Shown: positions 3,308 to 38,823 of the stretch, in pieces
Numbering within the stretch: the stretch's first letter is position 1
Layout: the number at the start of each line of letters is the position of its first letter
DNA from: Candidatus Bathyarchaeota archaeon
Lineage (GTDB): Archaea > Thermoproteota > Bathyarchaeia > Bathyarchaeales > Bathyarchaeaceae
Length of the DNA stretch: 64,000 bases
Direction: 5' to 3'
NCBI GenBank assembly: GCA_020348945.1
Contig: CP070759.1
Location: forward strand, 888,936-952,935
Program-made: the position numbers and the translations under genes
Notes under the pieces: model-generated
Databases searched by the model: none
Seen by the model: the letters and a program-made list of their open reading frames with translations, nothing else
Told to the model about the DNA's origin: nothing

Positions 3308-4456
3308 TTAATCGATGTAACTTTCCATCTTTTCGTGTATCTGTATGCCTCTCTTTGACAGCTCCTTGAAGAAATCCAAATGGTCGAGACCTGCTTCTGG
3401 AGACAGAACTCCCTTGTTTTCTGTTTTTCCTTTTGCAATCAGCTGGGCTCCAATCGAAAGAGGTATTCCAACATTTTTGCCGTATGCGGATTTTCCATCC
3501 CACTCGCTCATCGATGGATGGTTGTTTTTAAGAGTGATCTTCGCGGGTTTACCATTTTTCTGTCCCACTACTGTAACAATTAAGCCGTAGGCCCAAACGG
3601 GGTTTTTCTTGGCTTCTGGAGTTTGGTAGAGAAAATTGTACATAAAGTCTACTGGTTTCACTTTCTTTCCGTTTACTTCAATTGGCTGTGTTTGGTAAAA
3701 GTTGTATTTCACCATCAATTTGACCAGTTCCATAGTTGCTGGAGGGAAGCATCCTTTTACTTCCACTTTCTGTAGGTCTGGAAACATTTTAGGTAAGGTT
3801 TGTGTTTCTGGATGAGGAATGTAGACAACTTCTTGTCTTCCAATCTGCTCGTGGAATTCTACTATTTGTGCTCCTTCGAAGGGATTAACCTTTATGAATT
3901 CGCCGTTTTTGTAGTAGACTCTTTCTTCTATAGCTGGGTCGAATTCCCAAAAGGTTGTGCGTAATAGACCAGGCGCAATAGCTGTGCTTCGGAAAGCAGC
4001 AAATGCGATCTGCACCTCTTCTGCACGATCAAGTTTACTTATTCCATACTTCGCCATTAGATTAGTTGTGCCAGGTGTAGCTCCGCAGCCAGCTATATAC
4101 GTGATTCCTATTTTTTTCGCCTCTTCGTCGAGGGCAAATTGATTCTCTTCAGCTGAAAGGTCTATGCCATTTGTTCCAGCTTTTATGCAAGCCTTTGTCA
4201 CGTTAAGGTCATACTTGAAAGGTAATGCACAGGCAACGACATCGAAGCCTTTCATTGCGCTAGCAAGTTTATTAACGTTGCTTGCGTCAACTCTAACAAC
4301 TGAAAGTCTCTCGTCTCCTAGTTTAGAGACGACCTCTTTAGCTCTATCAACAGCTATATCTCCTATAACGATCTCTGAAAAATCACTTTTGCTCACTAGG
4401 TCTTTCGTGGTTTCCAAACCCATCGCGCCAACTCCACCTAGAACCAGTATTCGCAT
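3308..4456 (-). CDS. saccharopine dehydrogenase-family NAD(P)-binding oxidoreductase
   Basis: N-terminal Rossmann motif MRILVLGGVGAMG. Length (382 aa) and C-terminal domain layout resemble saccharopine/carboxynorspermidine dehydrogenase family proteins. Confidence 0.8.
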   Translation of the reverse strand: MRILVLGGVGAMGLETTKDLVSKSDFSEIVIGDIAVDRAKEVVSKLGDERLSVVRVDASNVNKLASAMKGFDVVACALPFKYDLNVTKACIKAGTNGIDLSAEENQFALDEEAKKIGITYIAGCGATPGTTNLMAKYGISKLDRAEEVQIAFAAFRSTAIAPGLLRTTFWEFDPAIEERVYYKNGEFIKVNPFEGAQIVEFHEQIGRQEVVYIPHPETQTLPKMFPDLQKVEVKGCFPPATMELVKLMVKYNFYQTQPIEVNGKKVKPVDFMYNFLYQTPEAKKNPVWAYGLIVTVVGQKNGKPAKITLKNNHPSMSEWDGKSAYGKNVGIPLSIGAQLIAKGKTENKGVLSPEAGLDHLDFFKELSKRGIQIHEKMESYID

Positions 4457-4604
4457 TTTAATGGCCTCAGCTATGATTTTGAATGGATTCCTATAAATCT
4501 ATCGTCCTAAGCGACTTCACAAACGCTGTCTGACTAGACCAAACATTTTCTCTATGATCCTCTGAAAAAAGATTCTGCCCAAAGTTGTTAGAGGTCTCCA
4601 AAGC

Positions 4605-4909
4605 GGAGACTTCGTTGATGCTTTTGTATCCGAAAACGCTTCTCCTGAACCGCAAAGAACATCGGTGATACATAGTGACTAGGTAATTCTGGTCCCACCA
4701 ACATCACCTAATATTAACATCGACATGTTGAGAACAATCAGAATTAGCAAGCTTTGCCTACTTAATTTACTTACAAAGCACATGCCTCCATCAAAAAATC
4801 GCGAGACAAACTTCTTTTTAACACAATAAAACGCTGACATCACCAACAAAACCCCTTCTCCGCTCCTCGCTTCAGATTTAGCGGATACAAAAGCATCAAC
4901 GAAGTCTCC
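4605..4909. repeat. perfect 28-bp inverted repeat pair (4605-4632 / 4882-4909) bracketing a 249-bp AT-rich segment
   Basis: GGAGACTTCGTTGATGCTTTTGTATCCG at 4605-4632; 4882-4909 is its exact reverse complement (checked base by base). Confidence 0.9.
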
Positions 4910-4915
4910 CAAAAA

Positions 4916-5569
4916 TCAGCCCAATTCACTTCTTAGTCTCTCTCTTTGTCTATGAATGTATCTTCTGCTATATCCAATGTAAGGGTCCACTGTCTTCGCC
5001 GATTTCCAACCGAACCAAGCTTTCATCTCAGGCAACGTTGTTGTTGGATCTTCAAGAAACCGCGTCGCCCGGTTTAATCGGAAAAAATGAGGATAGTAGC
5101 GGTTCCCCATAACACGTTTAACAACATTGATGGCTGTGCGGGGTGAAAAATCCCAGACTCTGCTCTCCTTGTTTTCTGAGCTATGTCTCGTTGCCTTAAC
5201 TTTCTCTATAATGAGATCTACGTACGGATAGTCAACGGGAACTTCTAACGGTTCTCTTTCGCCACCTTTCTTTGGTGTAGCGTCAACAATCAGCAAACCA
5301 TCTCTAATTAGGAAATCCTCGTTCGTTCTTTCTAGGGCCTCAGCCTTCCTTACCCCAAACCAGTAAAGAAAAGCTAGGAAAGATTTGTGACTCAGCATCT
5401 TGCTTTTAACGAACTTTCCATTTTCCATGGAATTTTTGAAAGTTTGAAAATCTATAGGTGTTGTTATTTTTCCATGCTTGTACTTCGGCAACGATAAACC
5501 ACCTAAGAAGAGACTTGTGCAATTGCGTAAAATGTACCTTTTGCGCAAATTAATATTGTTTTCTAACAT
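4916..5569 (-). CDS. tyrosine recombinase / phage-type integrase (catalytic domain only, 217 aa)
   Basis: Catalytic-residue pattern: R in GVRKAEAL, K in TPKKGG, HxxR in HFFRLNRAT, W in FGWKS, nucleophile Y in DPYIGYSRR. Confidence 0.8.
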   Translation of the reverse strand: MLENNINLRKRYILRNCTSLFLGGLSLPKYKHGKITTPIDFQTFKNSMENGKFVKSKMLSHKSFLAFLYWFGVRKAEALERTNEDFLIRDGLLIVDATPKKGGEREPLEVPVDYPYVDLIIEKVKATRHSSENKESRVWDFSPRTAINVVKRVMGNRYYPHFFRLNRATRFLEDPTTTLPEMKAWFGWKSAKTVDPYIGYSRRYIHRQRERLRSELG

Positions 5570-5651: not shown

Positions 5652-6119
5652 ATGGAAAAAATTCGCGCCAAAAGTGATCTTCAGAGGTTGCGCAGAAGAG
5701 GTTTTTATAGCGAGGCTGCTTTGGTTAAACTGCTTAAGAAAGAAGGGTACAAGGCTGTCCGGGTGCCAGTTAGCAACCCAAGCAGTAATCCTTTACCTGA
5801 CGTTATCGCAAGATGCGGCCAGCATGTTTATGCTTTTGAAGTGAAAAACGCAAGTTACCGTGCATATTTCCCTAAGGGACAAATTGAAAAGCTGTTTGGT
5901 TTCCTCGACCAGTTTATTCCCCTTTCCCATCAGTATAAACACGCGGTTTTGGCTGCCCACTTTGGCAGACGATGGATATTCCGCGAGATAAGCTGGAAAG
6001 ACTGGGAAGAGAACAAAATAGCTAAGCGAGAACGCATCTTGAAGAAAGATAAAGGTAATCTCAACTTGAAGACCAGTGCGACTCATCGACCTTTACTAGA
6101 CTATGCAATCTCCTCTTAA
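5652..6119 (+). CDS. hjc: Holliday-junction resolvase Hjc-like nuclease
   Basis: From ATG 5652: RRRGFYSEAALVKLLKKEGYKAVRVPVS...LPDVIARCGQHVYAFEVK matches the archaeal Hjc pattern G-x3-E ... VR-P-S ... PD-(I/V)-IA ... E-x-K. The upstream part of ORF 5478-6119 overlaps the integrase start and is probably not translated. Confidence 0.75.
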   Translation: MEKIRAKSDLQRLRRRGFYSEAALVKLLKKEGYKAVRVPVSNPSSNPLPDVIARCGQHVYAFEVKNASYRAYFPKGQIEKLFGFLDQFIPLSHQYKHAVLAAHFGRRWIFREISWKDWEENKIAKRERILKKDKGNLNLKTSATHRPLLDYAISS

Positions 6120-7133: not shown

Positions 7134-8234
7134 TTAACGTTTCTTATGTAGCTCAAGTAGCTTCATTACAGCCTCTCGATACACTTGAACGCTGTCCAAG
7201 TATTCCTGAATCCCTATGTGCTCGTTCGGTGTATGGTCTAGATGAGAGTCGCCGGGTCCGTATGTGACCACTGGTGCTTTCAAAGCGTTACCAAGGACGT
7301 TCATATCTCCGGTTCCCGTCTTTCTCAAGAGACGGGGAGAACTAGATCTTACCTTTCTAATTGCCCAAGATAGAGCCCGAACAAGAAGTGAACTCGAATC
7401 TACCTCAAAAGGCTCAATCAGATCCTCAATCTTCACTCTCACTGAGACTCCTAAATTAGCTGCCTGATATTGCATAACCCTTTTGCTGACTTCTTCGAAC
7501 ACTTGCCGGGAAGTAAGCGGAGGCGGAATTCGAAGGTCCATGTAAAGATGACATTTAGATGGAACCGTGGACGCCTCTTTGCCTCCCCGTATTTTAGTCA
7601 GACACGAGGTGATGGAGTAAAAGCGGCTTTCTAATTTTTCTTGAGGAAAATGAAGCTCTTGAATCACTTTCCAGATTTCAATAGCTTTTTCAACAGCGTT
7701 TTCAAAGAGCCAAGGAGCAGCGGAGTGTCCAGCCTGGGTCTCACAGGTTATTTTGAGATGTAGCCGCCCTTTGTATCCGATAGTTATGTTTTCAACGCCG
7801 CTTGGCTCTCCAAATATGGCATAGTCAGGGGAGATTCCGCTTTCTAAGAAGTGTTTAATGCCCTTGCCCTCACCTTCCTCGTCAACTACACCCACAACCA
7901 GAATTTTACCTGGGAGCCTTTTGATGAATGTGGATGATGCGATGATCATTGCCGCGAGAGATGTCTTTGCGTCAACGGCTCCTCGACCGTACAGTTGATT
8001 GTTTTCAACTCGAATGGGTATGCGCCCATGAACCGTGTCCATGTGCCCACATAGTAGAATAATCGGTTTTCCCCGGCCAGTTTCTCCAATTACGTTTCCA
8101 ACATCATCCGTCCATACATGGAAGCCTAAACGCTCCATCTCTGGAGCAAGAAAAACGGAAAGTTCTTCCTCTTCGCCGGATGGGCTGTAGATTTCTAGCA
8201 TCCTAGTTAGGAGGCTAACTGCGTAGTTGCTCAT
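7134..8234 (-). CDS. lysK: [LysW]-lysine/ornithine hydrolase (M20 peptidase, ArgE/LysK)
   Basis: M20 motifs LCGHMDTV, GRGAVDAKTS, VVDEEGEG. Last gene of the lysWXYZJK cluster. Confidence 0.85.
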   Translation of the reverse strand: MSNYAVSLLTRMLEIYSPSGEEEELSVFLAPEMERLGFHVWTDDVGNVIGETGRGKPIILLCGHMDTVHGRIPIRVENNQLYGRGAVDAKTSLAAMIIASSTFIKRLPGKILVVGVVDEEGEGKGIKHFLESGISPDYAIFGEPSGVENITIGYKGRLHLKITCETQAGHSAAPWLFENAVEKAIEIWKVIQELHFPQEKLESRFYSITSCLTKIRGGKEASTVPSKCHLYMDLRIPPPLTSRQVFEEVSKRVMQYQAANLGVSVRVKIEDLIEPFEVDSSSLLVRALSWAIRKVRSSSPRLLRKTGTGDMNVLGNALKAPVVTYGPGDSHLDHTPNEHIGIQEYLDSVQVYREAVMKLLELHKKR

Positions 8235-9414
8235 TTTCCCCTTCCTCTAGAATTGTGCCAAGAACACTGATTACTTTGTCAATTTGCTCCTTTTCTATAA
8301 CTAGAGGTGGTAGGAACCGCAATATGTTTCTTCCAGCGTCAAGGACAAGCACTCCCTTATCCATGGATTGGAGAATTATGTTCAAAATGTCAAATCGGAA
8401 TTCTACGCCAATCATGAGTCCTAGCCCCCGAACCTCTCTCACAATATTGTATCTGGCCTGAAGTTCCTTTAGCTTTTCTTTAAAGTATCGCCCATGCGAT
8501 GCCGCTCTCTCTGGAAGCCTCTCCTCAACCATCACGTCAATTGCGGCGCACGCAGCCGCACAGACGAGCGGATTTCCACTGAAAGTACTTGTGTGTTCCC
8601 CAAGTTTAAAGGAGGACATAATGTTCTCTTTCGCGATTGTTATGCCCAGTGGGAGACCGCCTGCCACCGATTTTGCGAGGCATAAAATGTCAGGAGTGAC
8701 GCCCCAGTGTTCACATGCAAACATCTTTCCAGTGCGGCCAAATCCCGTTTGAACCTCATCAAATATTAATAGGACATCCTCCTCATCACAAATTTCTCTC
8801 AGTTCTTGAAGGAAACCTTTCGGAGGAATTCTAACTCCTCCTTCTCCCCTGATAGGTTCCACGAGTATGGCGGCTGTTTTCTCTGTTATGGCTCCCCTTA
8901 TCTTTTCGAGGTTGTCGGGAGGAACGTGCTTAAAGCCAGGGACTAGAGGCTTGAATGGTTCACGATACTTTTTATTCCATGTTGCGGATAGGGCGCCCAT
9001 GGTTTTTCCGTGAAAGGCAGTCATCATTGCAATTATCTCAGGCGAACCAGAAAACTTGCGTGCTAATTTTATGGCACATTCAACTGATTCAGCGCCGCTG
9101 TTTCCGAGGAAAATTTTGTTGAGGCTTTTGGGGGTTATTTGAACGATCTTTTGCAGAAGCTTGGATCTCTCATCATTGTAGAAGGATCCGTGACAGGAGA
9201 TGAGTGTTTCCGCCTGTCTTTTTATGGCTTCTACAACTTTTGGGTGAGAGTGCCCAACGATGCATACTCCATAGCTGCCTGTGCAGTCTATGTATTCTTT
9301 GCCGTGGATGTCCCAGACTAGGGCTCCTCTGCCCCTGTTGAGAGTAACTGGTCTTTTGGCGTATACATTTGCCATAAGCCTTCTTTCAATGTCTATAACT
9401 TCTTGCTCATTCAC
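8215..9414 (-). CDS. lysJ: [LysW]-aminoadipate semialdehyde / acetylornithine aminotransferase
   Basis: Class-III aminotransferase motifs GSYGVCIVGHSHP, LIFDEVQTGFGRTG, CLAKSVAGGLP. Overlaps neighbours in operon fashion. Confidence 0.9.
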   Translation of the reverse strand: MNEQEVIDIERRLMANVYAKRPVTLNRGRGALVWDIHGKEYIDCTGSYGVCIVGHSHPKVVEAIKRQAETLISCHGSFYNDERSKLLQKIVQITPKSLNKIFLGNSGAESVECAIKLARKFSGSPEIIAMMTAFHGKTMGALSATWNKKYREPFKPLVPGFKHVPPDNLEKIRGAITEKTAAILVEPIRGEGGVRIPPKGFLQELREICDEEDVLLIFDEVQTGFGRTGKMFACEHWGVTPDILCLAKSVAGGLPLGITIAKENIMSSFKLGEHTSTFSGNPLVCAAACAAIDVMVEERLPERAASHGRYFKEKLKELQARYNIVREVRGLGLMIGVEFRFDILNIILQSMDKGVLVLDAGRNILRFLPPLVIEKEQIDKVISVLGTILEEGENEQLRS

Positions 9415-10216
9415 GGCTTATCACAGTGCCACACTTGTGTTCTAACGGTGAGGAGATGGGGAACTTCTTCAGCCCAAAGGAAATTATAACCTCGCCGACA
9501 CCTAGGTTGAGGGCCTCAATTGCCGCGTAAAGCTTGGTGGACATTCCTCCGCCGACCTTTGGAAGAATCTTCTCTACCTCTGAAATGTTCAGCTTTGGTA
9601 CTAACTTGTCGCCTAATGTTAAACCTTGAACATCCGTTAAGAGGATGAGCTTGTCTGCATTGAGAGATCCAGCAATGTGAGCTGCCATTCGGTCGGCATC
9701 CACGTTCAAGGGTTCGAATTTCTCGCTTACGGCAACGGGTGCTATAACTGGCACATACCCATTTTCTACAAGAAGCCACAGCAACTTAGCGTTAACTTTG
9801 CATATTTTCCCAGTGTATCCTCCATCAACAACTCTTTTCCTTCCACTCTTATCAACAATTACGATCCTTTTTTTCCGATTTGCCTGCACAAGACGACCAT
9901 CTAAACCAGATAATCCCACGCCAAGTACACCGTGACTCTGGAGGATAGAAACCATCTGCTTGTTAATTTTCCCCGCCATGACCATCGTGAATATTTCAAC
10001 CGTGTCCTTATCGGTGTATCGACTGCGAAATCCTTTGGGTGAGACTACAAATTCTTGTTTTTTCCCTAGTTTGGAGGCGATTTCGGTAACCTCGGCCCCT
10101 CCGCCGTGAACTATGGCAATTCTGTTTTCAGAGAGAAGATTCTTTATGTCGAGAATGAGTTCGGGTGAAGACTTCCACCTTAGGATGTTTCCTCCTACCT
10201 TAGTTACAATTAACAT
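9407..10216 (-). CDS. lysZ: [LysW]-aminoadipate kinase / acetylglutamate kinase family
   Basis: Amino-acid kinase fold motifs VTKVGGN, IAIVHGGG, VPVIAPVAV, LILLTDV. Confidence 0.9.
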   Translation of the reverse strand: MLIVTKVGGNILRWKSSPELILDIKNLLSENRIAIVHGGGAEVTEIASKLGKKQEFVVSPKGFRSRYTDKDTVEIFTMVMAGKINKQMVSILQSHGVLGVGLSGLDGRLVQANRKKRIVIVDKSGRKRVVDGGYTGKICKVNAKLLWLLVENGYVPVIAPVAVSEKFEPLNVDADRMAAHIAGSLNADKLILLTDVQGLTLGDKLVPKLNISEVEKILPKVGGGMSTKLYAAIEALNLGVGEVIISFGLKKFPISSPLEHKCGTVISRE

Positions 10217-38645: not shown

Positions 38646-38745
38646 TGGTGCTCCGGCCGGGATTTGAACCCGGGTCGGCGGCTTTCTCTCCAGTGTTGTA
38701 GAGGACGAGAGGCCGCTATACTTGACCGGACTATACTACCGGAGC
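38646..38745 (-). tRNA. tRNA-Glu(CUC) with a 22-nt canonical (37/38) intron; CCA encoded
   Basis: Minus-strand read: GCUCCGG UA GUAU AGUCCGGUCAA GUAU A GCGGC CUCUCG[UCCUCUACAACACUGGAGAGAA]A GCCGC CGAC CCGGG UUCAAAU CCCGG CCGGAGC A CCA. The GCUCCGG acceptor is typical of archaeal tRNA-Glu. Confidence 0.85.
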
Positions 38746-38750
38746 GTATG

Positions 38751-38823
38751 TGGACCGGGCGGGAGTTGAACCCGCGACCTCCGCCGTGCGAGGGCGGCAT
38801 TCATGCCACTGAACTACCGGCCC
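38751..38823 (-). tRNA. tRNA-Ala(CGC)
   Basis: GGGCCGG UA GUUC AGUGGCAU GAAU G CCGCC CUCGCAC GGCGG AGGUC GCGGG UUCAACU CCCGC CCGGUCC A. G3:U70 identity pair present. No encoded CCA. 5 nt upstream of tRNA-Glu on the same strand. Confidence 0.9.

Follow-up and report, generated by a model that had tools for sequence, protein, structure and literature searches.

Invertible DNA segments that are flipped by tyrosine recombinases are well known in bacteria, where programmed inversion is a classic source of heritable population diversity. Among the closest systems to the locus described here is the fimS element of Escherichia coli with its recombinases FimB and FimE, and MrpI in Proteus and RecV in Clostridioides difficile follow the same design. 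At fimS the 3' sequence of the recombinase transcript depends on the orientation of the element, and this is how fimE is controlled in E. coli. The position of the recombinase gene differs among inversion systems: Hin is encoded inside a segment of ~1 kb with 26-bp repeats, while the genes for Gin, Cin and FimE lie outside the segments that they invert. We have analyzed a locus of this general type in a stretch of 64,000 nucleotides (nt) from Candidatus Bathyarchaeota archaeon (GenBank assembly GCA_020348945.1, contig CP070759.1, positions 888,936 to 952,935 of the forward strand), which is referred to below as the window. In it, a gene for a minimal tyrosine recombinase adjoins a perfect inverted repeat enclosing 249 nt. 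A first-pass annotation of the window, made from the sequence alone, had proposed this arrangement as a candidate invertible switch, with a miniature inverted-repeat transposable element (MITE) as the alternative. Comparison with related loci points to a probable recombinase-driven invertible DNA module that is conserved across a lineage of Bathyarchaeia.

The archaeal literature offers few parallels. A review of archaeal tyrosine recombinases published in 2021 (PMC8371274) covers integration, excision, dimer resolution and large chromosomal inversions, and contains no small dedicated switch. The survey of Chanin et al. (bioRxiv 10.1101/2023.03.11.532203), in the part of its text available to us, lists 12 putative cases among 42 long-read data sets of Euryarchaeota and Crenarchaeota and describes chromosomal invertons as minimally investigated in archaea. 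The archaeal invertons of Chanin et al. resemble the present locus in being invertible chromosomal regions bounded by short inverted repeats; that text describes neither a dedicated recombinase family nor lineage-wide conservation, whereas both are found here. Our searches of the literature on archaeal invertons with tyrosine recombinases, and on Bathyarchaeia integrases with inverted repeats, returned no description of the module. The mechanism is a familiar one; the novelty lies in the family to which the recombinase belongs, in the occurrence in archaea, in the retention of the module throughout a lineage, and in a payload without a controlled operon.

In the window, the repeat arm far from the recombinase gene (4605-4632) is 28 nt long and 100% complementary to the arm near it (4882-4909), and 249 nt lie between them (4633-4881). 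When recomputed, the exact complementarity noted at first pass was confirmed, and so were the distances given for the two arms: the near arm ends 6 nt short of the recombinase stop codon (4916-4918), and 148 nt separate the far arm from a saccharopine-dehydrogenase-family gene that starts at 4456 on the minus strand (3308-4456; Pfam PF03435 and PF16653). The GTCTCC copy at 4594-4599 is also present and makes a palindrome of 6 bp with the left arm's tip. The segment had been called AT-rich; it does deviate in that direction, but only mildly, with a GC fraction of 0.38-0.40 against 0.41-0.45 nearby. Allowing up to 3 mismatches, the 28-mer has no further copy in the window, and 100 dinucleotide-preserving shuffles yielded 0 matches (0 expected by chance). 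The repeat is bordered by CCAAAGC directly before GGAGAC on one side and by CAAAAAT directly after GTCTCC on the other, with no direct repeat abutting both ends.

This layout shares much with fimS, where a tyrosine recombinase of ~190-200 amino acids (aa) without an N-terminal core-binding domain is likewise encoded directly beside a segment of ~250-310 bp with short inverted repeats. In both cases the recombinase gene borders on the switch at its 3' end, and its transcript would therefore read into different sequence in each orientation; in both there is a bias towards one orientation. The two systems differ in that the fimS repeats are 9 bp long, as against a conserved core of 18 nt here, and in that fimS drives the fimA operon, while no conserved downstream operon is present here and the payload looks like a small self-contained transcription unit. 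Moreover, fimS is bacterial, while the present host is an archaeon with promoters built of a TATA box and a transcription factor B recognition element, and the flips described below are known between strains. The likeness to the fimS/FimBE architecture that had been remarked on is one of layout and does not extend to detectable homology: an hhalign comparison of 25 aligned homologues with FimE of E. coli K-12 gave a probability of 1.2%, over 36 columns around the first catalytic arginine. The Hin/hix, Gin/gix and Cin systems differ in employing serine invertases, with a flagellin promoter or a tail-fibre gene as payload, neither of which applies here, and we identified no enhancer or Fis-type element of the Hin/Gin kind at this locus.

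The recombinase gene is located at 4916-5569 on the minus strand, as an open reading frame (ORF) of 217 aa. It had been annotated as a catalytic-domain-only protein of that length. The domain content is upheld, but the length is probably excessive: homologues are mostly 186-197 aa long, covering 88% of the window ORF, and translation therefore probably starts at the TTG at 5491, giving a protein of 191 aa. The first 31 residues are disordered in an AlphaFold2 model (mean predicted local distance difference test score 76, ~90 in the core) and are probably not translated. In the alignment of 25 homologues, the residues R74, K100/K101, H161-x-x-R164, W188 and Y197 (numbering of the window ORF) are invariant, and the catalytic set R-K-HxxR-W-Y is thus complete. 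The match of the window protein to the Pfam Phage_integrase family (PF00589) is below threshold, at 14.6 bits with a cut-off of 27.1 and E = 0.03; a precomputed match to this family is present on some homologues. The solved structure nearest to the family profile is XerA of Pyrococcus abyssi (4a8e, residues 116-275, E = 7.5e-5), and the alignment spans only the catalytic half of XerA. Foldseek searches with the model had XerH, XerA and Cre as top matches (E values from 7e-6 to 1e-4, probability 1.00). The NCBIfam model of archaeal XerA, NF040815, scores 28.9 bits on one homologue (P0084), with a cut-off of 220, and has no match to the window protein. On these alignments and the predicted fold, the protein is a real but minimal tyrosine recombinase, distantly Xer-like and without the N-terminal core-binding domain.

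The linkage of this gene to the repeat was assessed among its relatives. There are 188 detectable homologues of the window recombinase, the best 120 of which are 60-87% identical to it, and the named genome records with a close homologue are all from Bathyarchaeia. A look-up of the 217-aa window protein itself returned no record. We assembled 111 loci (numbered with the prefix L where they need to be told apart): 5 from look-ups of three homologues, 26 from species-representative genomes and 80 from metagenomes. About 80 of the 111 have an inverted pair of 18-nt cores, with at most 2 mismatches, adjoining the recombinase gene, and the pair is present wherever the flank is long enough. It mostly begins ~14-35 nt past the recombinase stop codon and encloses 228-561 nt. 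The linkage persists across unlike gene neighbourhoods, and the neighbourhood of the far arm is not conserved; the enclosed segment itself diverges until pairwise BLAST scarcely detects any relation.

Two further layouts maintain the association. In L024, L026 and L027 the recombinase is only 37-38% identical to that of the window, and the cores, which are perfect in L024, enclose 972 nt that contain the recombinase gene followed by the cassette motifs described below in the same direction. The genes flanking this segment, proB and a metallo-beta-lactamase-fold gene, start ~85 nt outside the arms and point outward. Both of the layouts known from invertases are therefore found here, with the gene inside the 972-nt segment in L024 and L027, and outside it in the window and most loci. 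In the third layout (L015, L016, L102, L103 and L107) the recombinase gene downstream of the core pair is intact but is a paralogue. Two of these loci, L016 (2576-2860, minus strand) and L107 (385-555), have the remains of an older recombinase gene directly against the arm, a 3' fragment that has decayed and is frameshifted, and the ancestral contact of gene 3' end and arm is thus preserved there. The paralogous gene, whose product begins with MVKRKGNPHKHHYKYGKQT, is intact and divergent, ~400 nt from the decayed fragment; by analogy of layout, the same would hold for L015, L102 and L103. It appears that in these loci a paralogue took the place of the resident recombinase gene, which was truncated.

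The part of the repeat that is conserved among relatives is shorter than the 28 nt that pair in the window. Its consensus is GTTGATGCTT[T/C]TGTATCC, and the window copies are GTTGATGCTTTTGTATCC at 4614-4631 on the plus strand and a second core in inverted orientation at 4883-4900 on the minus strand, identical or with at most 2 mismatches in the ~80 loci. The core is intact even where the recombinase is only 37% identical (L024), and it is usually followed by an A on the inner side, as seen when both arms of all loci are printed in register. An outer purine-rich extension, GRRGAARYTC, is semi-conserved and frequently differs from one arm to the other within a locus; for 33 of the 71 distinct arm pairs, perfect complementarity stops at the core. 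The 28-nt perfect repeat of the window is at the long end of the range among relatives. Thus the repeat first described is real, but as a probable functional site it narrows to the inner 18-19 nt, the outer 9-10 nt being semi-conserved. Since the core is invariant while both the recombinase and the inner segment diverge, it has the character of a sequence-specific protein site, and not just of an RNA stem.

Core sites of tyrosine recombinases generally consist of two arms and a spacer, a design that would be present here in miniature: we infer that the core reads as TTGATG, CTTTTG and TATCCA, that is, imperfect inverted arms of 6 nt (TKGATR) around a non-palindromic 6-nt spacer. An asymmetric spacer of this kind would give the site polarity, and two opposed sites would then yield inversion. 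The commonest polymorphism of the core, T or C at position 11, falls inside the presumed spacer. All combinations across the two arms occur, T/T, C/C or T/C (for example L059, L063, L073, L080, L088 and L089), and in one pair of loci with flipped segments, L088 (C/C) and L089 (T/T), position 11 is unlike at both arms. This pattern is suggestive of heteroduplex formation in the region of strand exchange, without proving it. A search of 2.9 million viral contigs found 7 exact matches to the core, all of them single sites without recombinase, second arm or inner motif, and by a rough estimate this is near the level of chance. An attachment site of a virus or mobile element was considered as an identity for the core and rejected on the solitary nature and near-chance number of these matches.

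The evidence for inversion comes from the orientation of the enclosed segment. Over the full length of the segment, the plus strand of the window matches the plus strand of L001 and L002, the recombinase gene being on the minus strand in the window and on the plus strand in these two loci. Because the gene is on the opposite relative strand, the window segment is flipped relative to its recombinase gene, and it is in fact inverted in comparison with its closest relatives L001, L032 and L035. When 80 segments were compared all-against-all in both orientations, with the orientation recorded as a sign, the resulting graph of similarities had one component of 77 segments, with 969 edges and 0 conflicts. 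In 67 loci the core pair comes directly after the recombinase gene; 57 of the segments there are co-directional with the gene and 10, that of the window included, are reversed. Parsimony on a neighbour-joining tree of the recombinases (67 tips) requires the orientation to have changed no fewer than 6 times, in several cases at a tip.

Two pairs of close relatives place the flips precisely. The flanks of L088 and L089 are 96-96.5% identical over 3.1 and 1.4 kb, and their segments reach ~94-96% only when one of them is inverted. For L073 and L080, identity is 89-95% in the flank on the recombinase side and 98% in the far flank, and 98% in the segment, again only upon inversion. For each of the two pairs, outer bases that are specific to one arm have remained beside their flank, while those immediately inside the core have changed places, so that the breakpoints lie within the 18-nt core. 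The same orientation states recur in independent assemblies (L063 with L088, L072 with L073 and L096 with L080), which makes misassembly unlikely; in addition, the final k-mers that the contig names suggest, k119-k141, exceed the repeats in length. With the core pairs at ~80 loci, the conflict-free graph and these exact flips between strains, the proposal of a recombinase-linked invertible DNA segment is supported. That the adjoining recombinase carries out the flip we infer from its constant linkage to the core. As regards the coexistence of both orientations within one sample, contig ends show no clear enrichment at the repeats: one contig (L071) ends 2 nt past the core and six others inside the segment, by a rough count no clear excess over the 340 nt that follow downstream.

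An alignment of 65 distinct segments, oriented alike, revealed a conserved succession of motifs within the segment, which we refer to as the cassette. In the window it lies on the plus strand and points towards the 3' end of the recombinase gene, which is the minority orientation of the 249-nt segment. The succession begins at 4664-4708 with a box reading GGTGA...TCACCAAYATCACC (GGTGA...TCACCAATATCACC), in which alignment columns G15, C57 and their neighbours are invariant. Its ends can form a first helix (4664-4668 with 4704-4708) that is 90% paired across the alignment and whose outermost pair varies between GC, AU and GU. An A/T-rich, TATA-like box, TAATATTAACA, follows at 4709-4719, right after the ATCACC repeat and conserved in position, for which a promoter role may be supposed; a second TATA-like box (TTAAAAAT-like) is found in many clades. 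Next is the near-invariant GTTTTGCCTAC motif (GYTTTGCCTAC, 4751-4761) with its partner CAAAGC (4774-4779), the two together spanning 4751-4779. Columns T103, T105, C108, T109 and A110 of this motif are invariant in the 65 sequences, and its first bases can pair with a downstream GCAAAAC. The helix formed by the 4751-4761 region with 4774-4779 is 64% paired, with many U-G pairs that are possible on this strand alone. The cassette ends with a terminator-like hairpin and T-run region at 4796-4819, the T-run CTTCTTTTT being at 4811-4819; AAAGCY-N-RGCTTCTTT is found in most loci, and the hairpin preceding the T-run is weak in the window itself. TATA-like boxes had been pointed out in both orientations of the segment at first pass: the one at ~4708-4718 coincides with the conserved A/T box, while the other (4815-4830) is a T-run after a hairpin and looks like part of a terminator.

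Some features of these motifs would fit an RNA. The three local helices, specified by hand, are 74% paired, compared with 33-49% when the partners are slid by 1-3 columns, and contain 43 double-sided changes compared with 30 ± 5 in shuffles; in the third helix, 4 of 6 pairs are changed on both sides. Many of the G-U pairs work on the cassette strand (plus in the window) alone. Folds made clade by clade are dominated by the repeat stem, and folds of single sequences are inconsistent. The cassette is probably a small non-coding RNA unit of ~70-100 nt, or else a 3' untranslated region (UTR) with terminator for the recombinase gene; in either case it would be transcribed. A small protein was also considered as its product and rejected: a 77-aa ORF (4679-4912) and a possible 17-aa ORF are not conserved, their starts and frames shifting with indels when the alignment is inspected by eye. 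A scan of the segment for sigma-70 promoters and terminators used a bacterial model and is uninformative for an archaeal host.

These observations suggest the following mechanism. The recombinase of ~191 aa would recognise the two inverted copies of the core consensus beside its own gene and, by strand exchange within the cores, flip the segment of 230-560 nt between them (4633-4881 in the window); exchange between core sites in opposite orientation is expected to invert what lies between. In the majority orientation the cassette would be read in the sense direction and be co-transcribed with the recombinase gene. In the flipped orientation, which is that of the window, it would be convergent with the recombinase gene and antisense to its 3' end. 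The cassette follows the recombinase gene in the same direction in 85% of loci, as it also does where the gene is inside the segment, and is convergent with it in the window; it is this constant relation between cassette and recombinase gene that leads to a model in which the flip alters sense versus antisense transcription. A change in transcription of the cassette relative to the recombinase gene is the most likely effect of the flip, and would be comparable to the control that orientation exerts on fimE at fimS, but this is much less certain than the existence of the module.

The flip might also switch transcription into the gene beyond the far arm. In the window this is the saccharopine-dehydrogenase gene. 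A role of this gene as the target of the switch is not supported: the far neighbour varies among relatives, and the cassette points away from this gene in the present orientation of the window, where it is simply what happens to lie next to the module. Three other loci with the same neighbour (L008, L009 and L081) have the cassette pointing towards it.

Taken further, the data would suggest that a Bathyarchaeia lineage keeps a dedicated, heritable two-state switch consisting of a minimal Xer-derived recombinase and a small-RNA or 3'-UTR cassette that can be flipped. We put this forward tentatively and rate its chances at slightly below even. Several observations weigh against the mechanism proposed above. 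No conserved gene is controlled: among 53 loci in the majority orientation, the far-arm neighbour is convergent in 29 and co-directional in 24, and a far-arm gene that varies in this way excludes a single conserved target of the kind that fimA is at fimS. The orientation of the segment is strongly clustered on the tree, with a bias of 85:15, which fits rare or biased switching. The closest pairs with opposite orientations are ~95% identical in the flank and flips are known between strains or species, so that flipping is established at the level of strains and not within a clone. Many loci pair a T in one core with a C in the other at the spacer position, and in canonical tyrosine recombinase systems a mismatch in the spacer lowers the efficiency of recombination. 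As to the payload, the TATA-like box is uneven in quality between clades, and the covariation in support of the local helices is modest. RNAalifold found no global consensus structure for the 65 sequences (-0.6 kcal/mol), and the cassette has no match in Rfam, a search of 4400-5000 at E up to 10 returning one spurious hit of 12 bits. With no global structure, modest covariation and no Rfam match, the reading of the payload as RNA is weak.

The most serious rival is that the protein is a housekeeping Xer-like enzyme, that the cores are dif-like sites, serving for instance in the resolution of chromosome dimers, and that inversion is incidental and the inner sequence accessory or architectural. 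The resemblance to archaeal XerA/dif is considerable. XerA is the nearest system by both profile and fold (4a8e from P. abyssi and 5hxy from Thermoplasma) and provides the closest structure and the closest NCBIfam model; like the present recombinase it is chromosomally encoded and strongly conserved, and dif too has inverted arms and a 6-nt spacer, if the layout of the core is read as above. The protein studied here is conserved at 60-87% identity over many species, usually as one copy per locus, it has a DNA-repair neighbour, Hjc, joined in relatives by ERCC4/XPF, and there is no conserved target gene. In the single-recombinase Xer systems XerS and XerH, moreover, the gene adjoins the dif site. 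Set against this are the absence of the N-terminal core-binding domain, which leaves a catalytic domain of ~190 aa where XerA has ~280 aa, and the score of 28.9 against a cut-off of 220 for the XerA model. The architecture of the sites differs as well: dif is one site of 28 nt, with 11-nt arms and a 6-nt spacer (PMC8371274), whereas two inverted copies with arms of ~6 nt are found here at 228-561 nt from each other, with conserved spacing and a directional cassette between them. We consider the housekeeping explanation unlikely, though it deserves to be taken seriously.

Alternatively, the 305-bp unit could be a MITE or represent the termini of a small mobile element inserted by chance beside an integrase gene; it does have terminal inverted repeats and a short non-coding interior, the repeats of L024 and L027 enclose the recombinase gene in the manner of an insertion sequence, L107 has an extra repeat pair and a second integrase-like ORF, and a third, solitary core is present in L004 and L005. 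The dispersed copies expected of a MITE were, however, looked for in the window and in the related loci, and a target-site duplication at the window unit, and neither was found. The window has a single unit, flanked by the dissimilar AAAGC and CAAAA, and in ~450 kb of related loci the unit occurs at the recombinase gene alone, save for the second pair in L107 and a few solitary cores. Its placement with respect to the stop codon is maintained in species with diverged flanks, its interior diverges in step with the host lineage, its orientation varies in place, and the 7 viral matches to the core are isolated sites in near-chance number. We therefore reject the MITE alternative of the first-pass annotation as highly improbable. 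It is also very unlikely that the repeats are the closing stem of a structured non-coding RNA of ~300 nt, with a terminal helix of 28 bp, for example for processing, and an unrelated recombinase gene as its neighbour. The region folds better than shuffled sequence (z = -7.7 and -6.9), but this score is almost wholly due to the perfect repeat; the outer arms differ between species and are often complementary within a locus, but in many loci they are not, the 33 of 71 pairs without extension beyond the core included. Local helices with some covariation do exist inside the segment, but the interior has neither an Rfam match nor an RNAalifold consensus. The core, furthermore, is conserved in sequence and not in pairing alone, and a stem leaves the exact flips between arms in related strains unexplained. 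General homologous recombination between short inverted repeats, with the recombinase having some other job, is as improbable as a MITE: any inverted repeat can give rare inversions, and the flips are infrequent (at least 6 on a tree of 67 tips), but arms of 18-28 nt are very short substrates, and the near-absolute conservation of the core together with its linkage to the recombinase in three layouts calls for a sequence-specific partner. An origin of replication, in which inverted origin-recognition boxes would flank an AT-rich unwinding element, was considered separately and rejected, the segment being barely richer in AT, with no orc1/cdc6 nearby and the recombinase as its constant partner.

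If the two-state switch suggested above is real, archaea would have in it their first conserved phase-variation system coupled to a recombinase, and one with a new kind of payload; should the recombinase have no other substrate, the switch would control just its own expression and the small RNA. An active switch would constitute a bet-hedging or memory device in these organisms. The recombinase of ~190 aa with its 18-bp site would also be a possible compact tool, and as site, enzyme and both junctions are defined, inversion is directly testable. One might even speculate that the conserved RNA helps in recognition of the site by an enzyme that has no DNA-binding N-terminal domain, but the chances of this appear to us exceedingly slim.

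Some of the related loci contain further sites or recombinase genes. In L107, the region between the decayed fragment and the intact gene (1148-2331) has a 210-aa integrase-like ORF unlike the others, a second inverted core pair around 509 nt unrelated to the usual payload, and a zinc-finger-like ORF of 118 aa; possibly, this insert is a mobile element whose attachment site is the same core. The solitary third core of L004 (8516-8533) and L005 (5159-5176) is 3.6 kb downstream of the module, beside a YjbQ-family gene, a family that in the window and in L001 adjoins Hjc and the recombinase gene, which is a hint that cores once took part in a larger rearrangement. One metagenome-assembled genome (CAZUQX01; L013 and L021; compare L019 and L020) has two paralogues that are 72% and 56% identical to the window protein. 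The paralogue group at 56-57% identity has no 18-nt core and no comparable repeat nearby, and may act on other sites. Six contigs (L048, L077, L086, L090, L091 and L104) break in the most conserved 3' part of the recombinase gene, at about the MKAWFGW motif; these breaks probably represent collapse of the assembly graph among co-occurring strains and not biology.

The recombinase gene and a gene for the Holliday-junction resolvase Hjc (5652-6119, plus strand; PF01870, E = 1.3e-15) are divergently oriented in the window. Close relatives have a gene for an ERCC4/XPF-type nuclease that converges on the far arm (L001, 5027-5725; L002, 1670-2323) and is absent from that position in the window. With these two as neighbours, the module sits in a small DNA-repair and recombination neighbourhood. 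Its metabolic context consists of the saccharopine-dehydrogenase-family gene, further aminotransferases nearby, and a run of genes on the minus strand at 7134-10216 encoding an M20 peptidase (LysK-like), a class-III aminotransferase (LysJ-like) and an amino-acid kinase (LysZ-like). This run resembles LysW-type lysine/arginine biosynthesis, the Pfam families having been seen on the syntenic genes of L001. Far from the module, the minus strand of the window has two adjacent tRNA genes (38646-38823), and two tRNAs were matched by Rfam over the whole window at gathering thresholds. One of them is tRNA-Ala(CGC). The second, of ~100 nt, was found by ARAGORN without an assigned amino acid and scores 51.6 bits with the Rfam tRNA model; it is most likely an intron-containing archaeal tRNA.

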